Virus record (IMG/VR): IMGVR_UViG_2695420644_000003
Direction: 5' to 3' (one strand)
Length of the DNA: 2,406 nt
From: a virus
Lineage: Duplodnaviria > Heunggongvirae > Uroviricota > Caudoviricetes
The notes beneath the pieces were generated by a model, which was given only the letters and a program-made list of their open reading frames with translations, was not told where the DNA came from and did no database searches. A program made the position numbers and the translations under genes. Of the stretch, positions 1 to 2,406 are shown one piece after another. Numbering within the stretch: the first letter of the stretch is position 1; every line of letters starts with the position of its first letter.

Positions 1-231
1 TTATCGACCAGCGATTTTTTCAGATCTGCAGAACACTTGGNGCCGNTNNANANGNAAATTGACCACATCAGACAGGAGGTTTAATTCACTCTGATAAATC
101 GCGATAACAGATTCAGTTATTTCGCGTTTTTCTTTATCAAGACCAAGTTGAATAAGAGACAAATCGCCATTTTTCATAACGGCGATTTTTAAGGCATTGT
201 TCAGTAAAACAACTGAACGAGAACAGGACAT
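1..231 (-). CDS. Hypothetical small protein, 76 aa from ATG at 231..229 (stop TAA at 3..1); distal gene of the leftward early operon; several codons ambiguous
   Basis: Open frame on minus strand with ATG at 231..229 preceded by GGAGG (7-nt spacer). The start overlaps the stop of the upstream ORF in the arrangement TGATG. The ORF track begins it at an in-frame TTG (234..232), which I consider less likely. Positions 41-56 contain N calls, so five residues are unknown. No recognisable domain. Confidence 0.55.
   Translation of the reverse strand: MSCSRSVVLLNNALKIAVMKNGDLSLIQLGLDKEKREITESVIAIYQSELNLLSDVVNXXXXRXQVFCRSEKIAGR
41..56. other. Patch of ambiguous base calls (N at 41, 46, 48, 49, 51, 53, 55)
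   Basis: Read directly from the sequence; interleaved N and called bases suggest low-quality base calling rather than a gap. Confidence 0.95.
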
Positions 232-455
232 CAAAGCACCTCCCCGCGAGACAAGCCGATGTTGTGAAATTTTTCCGACTCCTGACTGAGCAGCTCGACT
301 ATCTCCACGCGGGATAACTCCGCCTTTGTGATGTGGCGAATCATGGCGTCAAGATGAGAAGAAAAGCGCGTCGCTGCATCGGCCTGTGCTTCGGTTCTGG
401 CCTGTTGCAGCAGTAATGCGTATTTACCGCACTGATTTTCAGAAACTGTATGCAT
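231..455 (-). CDS. Hypothetical small protein, 74 aa from ATG at 455..453 (stop TGA 233..231)
   Basis: Minus-strand ORF. The ATG at 455..453 is preceded by GGAG (minus strand: CTGGAGAAAGTC-ATG). The track's longer version starts at a TTG at 488..486 inside the upstream hairpin region. Stop overlaps the start of the next ORF (TGATG). No recognisable domain. Confidence 0.55.
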
Positions 456-518: not shown

Positions 519-1019
519 TTAATGCAGATATTGCTCTGGTTTTACCGATGTCAGAATTGTCGGTGCATACTCAAACAGACTGAATAATTCACGTAATGCA
601 CGGAATAAAGCATCACGCCAGTAACATGATTCTTCATTAATTCGCCAGTATGGCTGGTTGAATTCTTTTTCTGTCAATCTGGCATGCATAAATAAAGTAC
701 GCCGCTGACTGACTGTTAAAAAACTAATATATGCATACTCACTTGCACCGACCTGACGGCGTTTTGAGAATGCCCCACGCAATTCATCAATTGCACAAAC
801 CAGCCGTTCACGTTCGACATCGTTCATTTCTTCGAAACGCATCGTTGCGTGACGTTGTTTTAACTGCGCATGGAAGCAAACCGTTAGCCGTTCACGTTCC
901 ATCATCTGATTATAATAATCACATGTCTCCTGCCAGCGAGGGACGGCCAGATGCTTACCAATTATCCGGCGCATAGCTGCTGGCTGTTTTTCGACGAGAT
1001 TAAGTGTCATCACTGTCAT
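519..1019 (-). CDS. B: Replication protein B-like (166 aa), P2 early-operon type
   Basis: 166-aa minus-strand ORF with ATG at 1019..1017 preceded by GGAGG (8-nt spacer). Its start overlaps the stop of the upstream small ORF (ATGA). Position (third gene after cox) and length match phage P2 gene B as I recall it (166 aa). Assignment rests on synteny, size and memory, not an alignment. Confidence 0.7.
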   Translation of the reverse strand: MTVMTLNLVEKQPAAMRRIIGKHLAVPRWQETCDYYNQMMERERLTVCFHAQLKQRHATMRFEEMNDVERERLVCAIDELRGAFSKRRQVGASEYAYISFLTVSQRRTLFMHARLTEKEFNQPYWRINEESCYWRDALFRALRELFSLFEYAPTILTSVKPEQYLH

Positions 1020-1186
1020 TTCCAGACCCTCCGGCTTTTCAGAAAGGTCAGAGCCTTTTTTAACGGACTCTGTTTTTTGGTGCGGATAATGATTCCCTTA
1101 CGCCCCTTACCGTGGGTGATGGTGAAGTCAATCGCCCTGGGGCTTTCGTTACGCAGTAACTGAGCAATACAACGAGGTTCATTCAT
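1016..1186 (-). CDS. Small, highly basic hypothetical protein, 56 aa from ATG 1186..1184; occupies the position of P2 orf78 between cox and B
   Basis: ATG at 1186..1184 preceded by a strong Shine-Dalgarno (minus strand TTAAGGAGAACCGT-ATG). The track's longer version starts at GTG 1210 and would overlap cox. About 15 K/R against 3 D/E in 56 residues. A tandem nucleotide repeat CCCTTAC-G-CCCCTTAC (1095-1110) encodes a G-K-G-R-K-G motif. Stop TGA overlaps the B start. Confidence 0.6.
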   Translation of the reverse strand: MNEPRCIAQLLRNESPRAIDFTITHGKGRKGIIIRTKKQSPLKKALTFLKSRRVWK

Positions 1187-1196
1187 ACGGTTCTCC

Positions 1197-1472
1197 TTAA
1201 CGTGGTTCACCGAGACCTAACCACATCAACCAGCCGTCACGAATCTCTTTAGGGCGGCTTTCATAAGCCAGTTTTAGTCCGTTATTCCATGCCGGAAGGT
1301 ATACCCAATATTCACCTGCACGACCTGAAGCTGATTGTGGATCGGTCATATCAATTACAGGCAGCTTTCCTTTATCGATCATCCGACGAACCGCTCCTGT
1401 CGATTTTCCTATTAGTTTTGCGAACTCCTGATAAGGAATCGCATCAGTCATGAGTGTTACTTGCTTGCTCAT
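1197..1472 (-). CDS. cox: Cox-like excisionase / lysogeny-switch regulator (91 aa)
   Basis: 91-aa minus-strand ORF with ATG 1472..1470 preceded by GGAGG (5-nt spacer); first gene of the leftward operon, divergent from the repressor gene. Length equals P2 Cox (91 aa, from memory). The segment IPYQEFAKLIGKSTGAVRRMIDKGKLPV followed by GEYWVYLPAWNNG has the look of an excisionase-type winged-helix DNA-binding protein. Confidence 0.8.
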   Translation of the reverse strand: MSKQVTLMTDAIPYQEFAKLIGKSTGAVRRMIDKGKLPVIDMTDPQSASGRAGEYWVYLPAWNNGLKLAYESRPKEIRDGWLMWLGLGEPR

Positions 1473-1583: not shown

Positions 1584-1593
1584 ACCATGTCAA
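1565..1593 (-). promoter_or_regulatory. Candidate leftward early promoter (Pe-like): -35 TTGACA (plus-strand 1588-1593), 17-bp spacer, -10 TAGTAT (plus-strand 1565-1570)
   Basis: Perfect -35 consensus and optimal spacer on the minus strand; -10 keeps the most conserved positions (TA...AT). Predicted start near 1557-1559, about 85 nt upstream of cox. The -35 overlaps the repressor start codon (1587-1589). Confidence 0.55.
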
Positions 1594-1886
1594 ACACGAT
1601 AAGCGAGAAGATAGTCTTAATGCGAAAATCAGAGTATTTGAGCAGACAACAACTTGCTGATTTAACAGGGGTTCCGTATGGCACGCTGAGTTACTATGAA
1701 AGTGGTCGTTCAACACCTCCAACAGATGTCATGATGAACATCCTGCAGACCCCACAATTCACCAAATACACTTTATGGTTCATGACCAATCAGATCGCTC
1801 CTGAGTCCGGGCAAATTGCGCCCGCTCTCGCACACTTTGGGCAAAACGAAACAACGTCGCCCCACTCCGGTCAAAAGACTGGTTAA
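1587..1886 (+). CDS. C: Immunity repressor, HTH DNA-binding protein (99 aa), P2 C-like
   Basis: 99-aa plus-strand ORF (ATG 1587, TAA 1884-1886). N-terminal segment SRQQLADLTGVPYGTLSYYESG fits a helix-turn-helix. Divergent from cox and immediately upstream of int on the same strand, as in P2; length equals P2 C (99 aa, from memory). Weak Shine-Dalgarno (GAGA about 10 nt upstream). Confidence 0.8.
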   Translation: MSNTISEKIVLMRKSEYLSRQQLADLTGVPYGTLSYYESGRSTPPTDVMMNILQTPQFTKYTLWFMTNQIAPESGQIAPALAHFGQNETTSPHSGQKTG

Positions 1887-2001: not shown

Positions 2002-2406
2002 ATGGCAATCAAAAAACTCGATGATGGTCGATATGAAGTGGACATCCGCCCTACTGGACGTAATGGAAAACGCATCCGTAGGAAGTTTGATAAGAAAAGC
2101 GAAGCTGTCGCTTTCGAGAAATACACGTTGTACAACCACCACAATAAAGAATGGCTATCAAAACCAACAGACAAGCGACGTCTGTCGGAGCTGACACAGA
2201 TCTGGTGGGATTTAAAGGGTAAACACGAAGAGCATGGGAAATCTAATCTTGGAAAAATTGAAATCTTCACAAAAATAACGAATGACCCATGCGCATTTCA
2301 AATTACGAAATCGCTTATCAGCCAGTACTGCGCCACCCGAAGAAANTNNGNNNANNCCCAGGCCATCGCATGCCACTGGCAATCACCGGCATCGGCAAGG
2401 CATTGA
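2002..2406 (+). CDS. int: Tyrosine integrase, N-terminal (arm-binding) portion only; reading frame closes at 134 aa with TGA at the window end, after ambiguous bases at 2346-2356
   Basis: ATG 2002 preceded by GGAGG (8-nt spacer). The N-terminus (KKLDDGRYEVDIRPTGRNGKRIRRKFDKKSEAVAFEKY) has the pattern of a phage integrase arm-type DNA-binding domain. A complete integrase would be over 300 aa with a C-terminal catalytic domain, which cannot be present in this window. Whether the 134-aa stop is real or an artefact of miscalled bases cannot be decided from the sequence. Confidence 0.65.
   Translation: MAIKKLDDGRYEVDIRPTGRNGKRIRRKFDKKSEAVAFEKYTLYNHHNKEWLSKPTDKRRLSELTQIWWDLKGKHEEHGKSNLGKIEIFTKITNDPCAFQITKSLISQYCATRRXXXXXQAIACHWQSPASARH
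2346..2356. other. Patch of ambiguous base calls (N at 2346, 2348-2349, 2351-2353, 2355-2356) inside the integrase reading frame
   Basis: Read directly from the sequence. Confidence 0.95.

Follow-up and report, generated by a model that had tools for sequence, protein, structure and literature searches.

The window analysed here, a 2,406-nt stretch of DNA from IMG/VR record IMGVR_UViG_2695420644_000003, comprises an internal fragment of the chromosomal gene sslE at its left end, a P2-like prophage segment in its body, and an internal fragment of a chromosomal IclR-family regulator gene at its right end, and every base can be assigned to one of these parents. An exact-product look-up of the 134-aa protein encoded at the right end returned one contig from one sample, CCCC01000093.1 of assembly GCA_000937575.1, for which the searchable literature holds no description. 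The contig is 12,110 nt long; the window occupies contig positions 14–2419, and the contig continues for 9.7 kb past it. Positions below refer to the window unless the contig is named.

Alignment to phage P2 (NC_001895) reveals that positions 56–2344 are collinear with P2, ungapped, and 98.1% identical, such that window position i corresponds to position i+1001 of the P2 locus extract. In particular, the segment enters orf81 (DUF5405) in mid-gene (47–234, minus strand, ungapped alignment to P2) and continues through an intact orf80 (DUF2732; 231–455, minus strand; 97.3% identity to P2; assigned by Pfam and gene call), an intact gene B for the 166-aa replication protein (519–1019, minus strand; 95% identity to P2 and 100% to prophages of ETEC), an intact orf78 (1016–1186, minus strand), cox for the 91-aa excisionase and Pc repressor (1197–1472, minus strand; 100% identity to P2), the Pe/Pc switch region with operators O1 and O2 (1473–1586, placed from the P2 feature table), and C for the 99-aa immunity repressor (1587–1886, plus strand; 100% identity to P2), before ending within int. 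The switch region differs from P2 at three positions (1482, 1507, and 1528), all outside the annotated operators and hexamers. Across the segment, gene identities to P2 range from 95 to 100%. The divergence from the reference P2, noted for positions 196–1025, is mosaic, with orf81, orf80, and B at 95–97% and cox, C, and the int fragment at 100%.

Prophages in several complete ETEC genomes match the same segment, positions 56–2344, at 100% identity. In the one such prophage examined, that of strain 602354 (NZ_CP025847.1), orf81 is complete and int has its full 1014 nt, followed by yegR and yegS.

The int ORF runs on the plus strand from an ATG at 2002 to a TGA at 2404–2406 and encodes 134 aa. 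The P2-derived part comprises int codons 1–114 plus one base (2002–2344), identical to P2 in DNA (342 of 342 positions in the 114 codons) and in protein (residues 1–114 of the 337-aa P2 Int); it corresponds to the arm-binding N-terminus followed by the initial 59% of the core-binding domain, Int_N. Specifically, Pfam aligns the ORF to Int_N profile positions 1–59 of 100 and finds in it no match to the Phage_integrase catalytic domain PF00589, whereas P2 Int itself covers Int_N profile positions 1–100 (residues 57–156) and carries PF00589 at residues 164–308. A functional tyrosine recombinase has a complete core-binding domain and a catalytic domain with the active-site residues and nucleophilic tyrosine. 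The ORF has neither, and it cannot be a working tyrosine recombinase. A tblastn search of the whole 12.1-kb contig with P2 Int returned residues 1–114 at 100% identity and no other match better than E = 3.6. Downstream of the int fragment, an attachment site (attP, attL, or attR) is likewise absent: blastn of the P2 locus extract, attP included (extract 4096–4122), against the contig aligned extract 1057–3345 only, and in the contig the IclR-family gene follows int in place of the attachment site.

Integrase homology ends at a sharp boundary. Megablast matches to P2 and to the prophages stop at 2344, and positions 2345–2406 are 100% identical to nt 381–442 of the IclR-family regulator gene (768 nt, plus strand, native frame from 2358). 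This gene adjoins rmuC. About 1,450 of 5,426 complete E. coli genomes carry it, and in 1,426 of them it matches the 50 bases after the N patch at 50 of 50 positions. The patch itself (2346–2356) lies directly 3′ of the 2344|2345 breakpoint and contains eight Ns (2346, 2348, 2349, 2351–2353, 2355, and 2356); the called bases at 2345, 2347, and 2354 agree with the IclR gene and disagree with P2. The initial annotation, which had given the ORF, its Ns, and its stop as they are found here, had judged it too short for a working recombinase and had taken the N patch as the place where the sequence goes wrong; the partial Int_N, the missing PF00589, and the end of P2 homology at 2344 bear out both judgements.

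Past the patch, the int frame reads 15 sense codons of IclR-gene DNA, QAIACHWQSPASARH, before it meets the terminal TGA. This stop is not in the reading frame of the native IclR gene, which the contig carries on to its natural stop. The TGA coincides with the window end because gene-call boundaries determined where the window was cut; likewise, positions 1–3 are the stop of a fused minus-strand ORF. The seam has also yielded further products. An ATG-initiated ORF of 147 aa at contig 2302–2745 (window 2289 onward) begins within the int fragment and runs through the N patch in the IclR frame. What the gene caller gave in its place was a 120-aa IclR_C protein starting at contig 2383, with a 37-nt overlap with the int ORF. 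The two products are artefactual, and public protein sets include both.

The left end of the window mirrors the right, with a host fragment, an N patch, and a P2 gene joined in mid-gene. Positions 1–45 (minus strand) correspond to sense nt 2979–3023 of the 4569-nt chromosomal sslE and match it at 100% in thousands of E. coli genomes. The first N patch (41–55, seven Ns) lies across the breakpoint, which the called bases place between 45 and 47, with sslE through 45 and P2 from 47. The sslE fragment gives the broken orf81 an out-of-frame tail and a TAA stop (positions 3–1), so that the minus-strand ORF at 1–234, with sslE at its 3′ end, encodes 77 aa as compared with the 100-aa P2 Orf81; DUF5405 is matched over profile positions 1–56 of 88 in the fused ORF and 1–88 in P2. 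An exact-protein look-up found no record of the 77-aa product, because the gene caller chose another start and gave 76 aa. The stops at both ends of the window are thus out of frame in their host genes. The two flanks are also distant from each other: in the complete genome of strain BE2-5, about 955 kb separates sslE from the IclR gene.

The source contig as a whole is a patchwork of eight unrelated pieces with at least seven breakpoints in 12 kb, nearly all of which fall within genes. In order along the contig, these are the sslE fragment (1–58), of which just 58 nt precede the P2 piece; the P2-like segment (59/60–2357); the IclR fragment with the first 180 codons of a 2-dehydro-3-deoxygalactonokinase gene (2358 to about 3307); yehX and a partial yehW (about 3318–4861); a partial prfH, pepD, gpt, and a partial frsA (4852–8562); a partial rffC, rffH, and a partial rffG (8562–9926); fimbrial genes and a truncated gene for a PLP-dependent enzyme (9927–11819); and IS1 (11820–12110). 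The best matches to contig 9927–11819 are at 99.5–99.7% on E. coli plasmids of 57–102 kb; judged by these sequence matches, the contig joins chromosomal and plasmid-type DNA. The prfH–frsA and rff pieces are 0.88 Mb apart in strain 63-2.

Fusion and truncated ORFs accompany these switches. NCBIfam profiles reveal a 476-aa kinase–YehX ORF with an ABC ATPase at residues 183–468, a 370-aa YehW–PrfH ORF with an ABC permease at residues 7–217 and PrfH at residues 218–367 (profile positions 51–200 of 200), an FrsA limited to profile positions 1–312 of 414, and an RffG limited to profile positions 235–355 of 355.

Ambiguous bases and breakpoints coincide in this contig. It contains 20 Ns in total, in three clusters (contig 54–68, 2359–2369, and 3308–3320), and each cluster lies on a breakpoint; at the third, identity to the 2-dehydro-3-deoxygalactonokinase gene stops and yehX starts. 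If three clusters were placed at random, the probability of each one landing no more than 8 nt from one of the seven breakpoints would be about 1e-6. The called bases within the two patches of the window fit a clean crossover between two parents, and the patches resemble seams at which the consensus was called with low confidence. We considered whether the Ns could be a consensus of disagreement between two overlapping parents and rejected this as a full account, since Ns occur at 48, 53, and 2352, where the parents agree. Nor is every join marked by Ns; three breakpoints carry none: yehW|prfH at about contig 4856, frsA|rffC at contig 8562, and rffG|fimbrial at contig 9926/9927. At the first of these, about 10 nt match both parents (contig 4852–4861); the other two are flush.

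The junctions occur in this contig alone among the collections searched. Not one of 5,426 complete E. coli genomes contains the int–IclR junction, and the junction patterns of the window are absent from the GTDB representative genomes, IMG/VR, and the JGI metagenomes. As regards collinearity, no complete genome among the 5,426 has 80% or more of the contig at a single location; the highest share is 33%. The junctions of a cryptic P2 remnant would be expected in more than one independent genome or assembly, and host DNA would be contiguous on both sides, normally at a P2 attachment locus; neither is seen here. A deletion running from a prophage into adjoining host DNA was also considered and rejected, since the identical prophages adjoin yegR, not the IclR gene or sslE, and since the sslE and IclR flanks are not contiguous with each other.

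Instead, the contig has three of the features by which an assembly chimera is recognized. In finished genomes, its neighbouring pieces come from non-adjacent loci or different replicons; its breakpoints are intragenic and give rise to nonsensical fused or truncated ORFs (orf81–sslE, int–IclR, kinase–YehX, YehW–PrfH, FrsA, and RffG); and, at three breakpoints, ambiguous bases are concentrated at the seams. We therefore consider it very probable that CCCC01000093.1 is a chimeric, mis-joined draft contig and that the 134-aa "integrase" is a reading-frame accident over one of its seams. According to this reading, 2.3 kb of an ordinary P2-like prophage, beginning within orf81 and ending at int codon 114, would have been falsely joined at both ends, to 58 nt from within sslE on the left and to the second half of the IclR-family gene on the right, and low-confidence calls would have remained at both seams as Ns. 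The int frame would then continue past the right seam into IclR-gene DNA read in the wrong frame, where a TGA ends it after 15 codons; the gene caller would have output the 134-aa protein, and the window would have ended at that stop. The joins presumably arose outside the cell, in assembly, scaffolding, contig merging, chimeric reads, or library preparation, and a mixed sample may have been involved. Reads spanning the seams would then be expected to be lacking, and the true int of the strain is probably a normal gene for 337 aa. The truncation of int is a property of the assembly record, not demonstrably of the organism.

The first alternative, which we regard as very unlikely, is that the window represents a real, heavily rearranged P2 remnant, in which illegitimate recombination in the cell placed 2.3 kb of P2 between two broken genes, sslE and the IclR-family regulator gene, leaving an element with C immunity and cox, locked in place by the lack of a working integrase or att site. 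Natural P2 remnants exist, the immunity region here (C, cox, Pe/Pc, and operators) is intact and predicted from its sequence to be functional, and the relative orientation of the two flanks geometrically fits an inversion junction. However, such an origin requires two independent mid-gene breaks, both on the only Ns of the window, and five further unrelated breakpoints in the next 10 kb, one of them from chromosomal to plasmid-type DNA; the product is found in none of the 5,426 complete genomes or the three other collections; and the left flank is just 58 nt at the extreme end of a contig. The initial annotation had offered, as one of its two explanations, a truncated int in a domesticated or cryptic, excision-defective prophage. 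That explanation does not hold, as the P2 piece does not lie within a coherent host locus, and the window ORF is no evidence of an excision-defective prophage. Were the joins real, disrupted host genes would enclose a captured 2.3-kb P2 immunity module (C, cox, and B) that lacks both integrase and att site, amounting to a permanently fixed superinfection-immunity cassette made by multi-fragment illegitimate recombination. We give such a capture a very low probability.

A different origin of the joins, to which we also assign very little weight, is a physically chimeric template, in which unrelated genomic fragments were ligated during library construction, or two strains were mixed, and the contig reproduces an artificial molecule correctly. 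The segment sizes of 1–4 kb and the three flush or near-flush, N-free joins resemble end-to-end concatenation more than repeat-mediated misassembly; against this, inspection of the two window junctions revealed no restriction-site or adapter signature. Under software and template chimerism alike, the truncation of int is not biological.

The weakest alternative, and one that is refuted to the point of having almost no probability left, is the other explanation of the initial annotation, a simple frameshift or a few miscalled or missing bases in the N patch with the integrase continuing in another frame: the +2 frame is indeed open from 2358 to the window end, as had been noted, but it is the native frame of the IclR-family regulator and its peptide, PGHRMPLAITGIGKAL, is residues 132–147 of that protein and not integrase; the 50 nt after the patch are no more similar to P2 int at the matching positions than expected by chance and, being part of IclR nt 381–442, encode integrase in none of the frames; a tblastn search of the full contig with P2 Int finds nothing past residue 114 at an E of 1 or better; and all downstream genes belong to other families. 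The initial interpretation is supported in part, in its two judgements on the N patch and on the recombinase.

With a mis-joined contig as the preferred reading, the 134-aa int ORF has no biological significance, and its value is as a warning and a matter of database hygiene. Fused proteins from this contig are present in public collections (the 134-aa Int–IclR, 476-aa kinase–YehX, and 370-aa YehW–PrfH products), where they could pass for truncated integrases, signs of prophage domestication, or new fusions of domains. In GCA_000937575.1, scattered Ns in short clusters mark mis-joins, and other contigs of the assembly are therefore suspect.

Comparison with known systems places the P2-derived piece and the contig separately. 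The piece resembles the early and immunity region of P2 in its gene order, orf81–orf80–B–orf78–cox on one side and C–int on the other of the Pe/Pc switch; it differs in starting within orf81 and ending at int codon 114. Missing from the contig are int residues 115–337, which comprise the rest of Int_N and the catalytic domain, the attP site and P′ arm, and genes that lie beyond the ends of the piece in P2, for example orf82, orf83, A, ogr, and the late genes. Intact P2-like prophages of ETEC and other E. coli at the yegR site, as in strain 602354, have the same nucleotides over positions 56–2344, at 100% identity, but unlike the window they are free of neighbouring IclR or sslE sequence. Natural P2 remnants, such as ogrK–yegZ of E. 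coli K-12, are likewise short P2-derived segments without a functional integrase; they lie at a P2 attachment locus in contiguous host DNA and recur across related strains, whereas the window segment has non-adjacent host flanks, Ns on both seams, and a single occurrence in one contig of one assembly. The contig as a whole is comparable to chimeric or mis-scaffolded short-read draft contigs. From these, CCCC01000093.1 differs in its unusually high density of breakpoints, seven in 12 kb, and the usual mechanism of repeat collapse has no obvious fit, as most of its joins are without a shared repeat; it resembles them in that no join is backed by any finished genome, the joined loci are distant, the breaks are intragenic, Ns lie at seams, and the contig ends in IS1.
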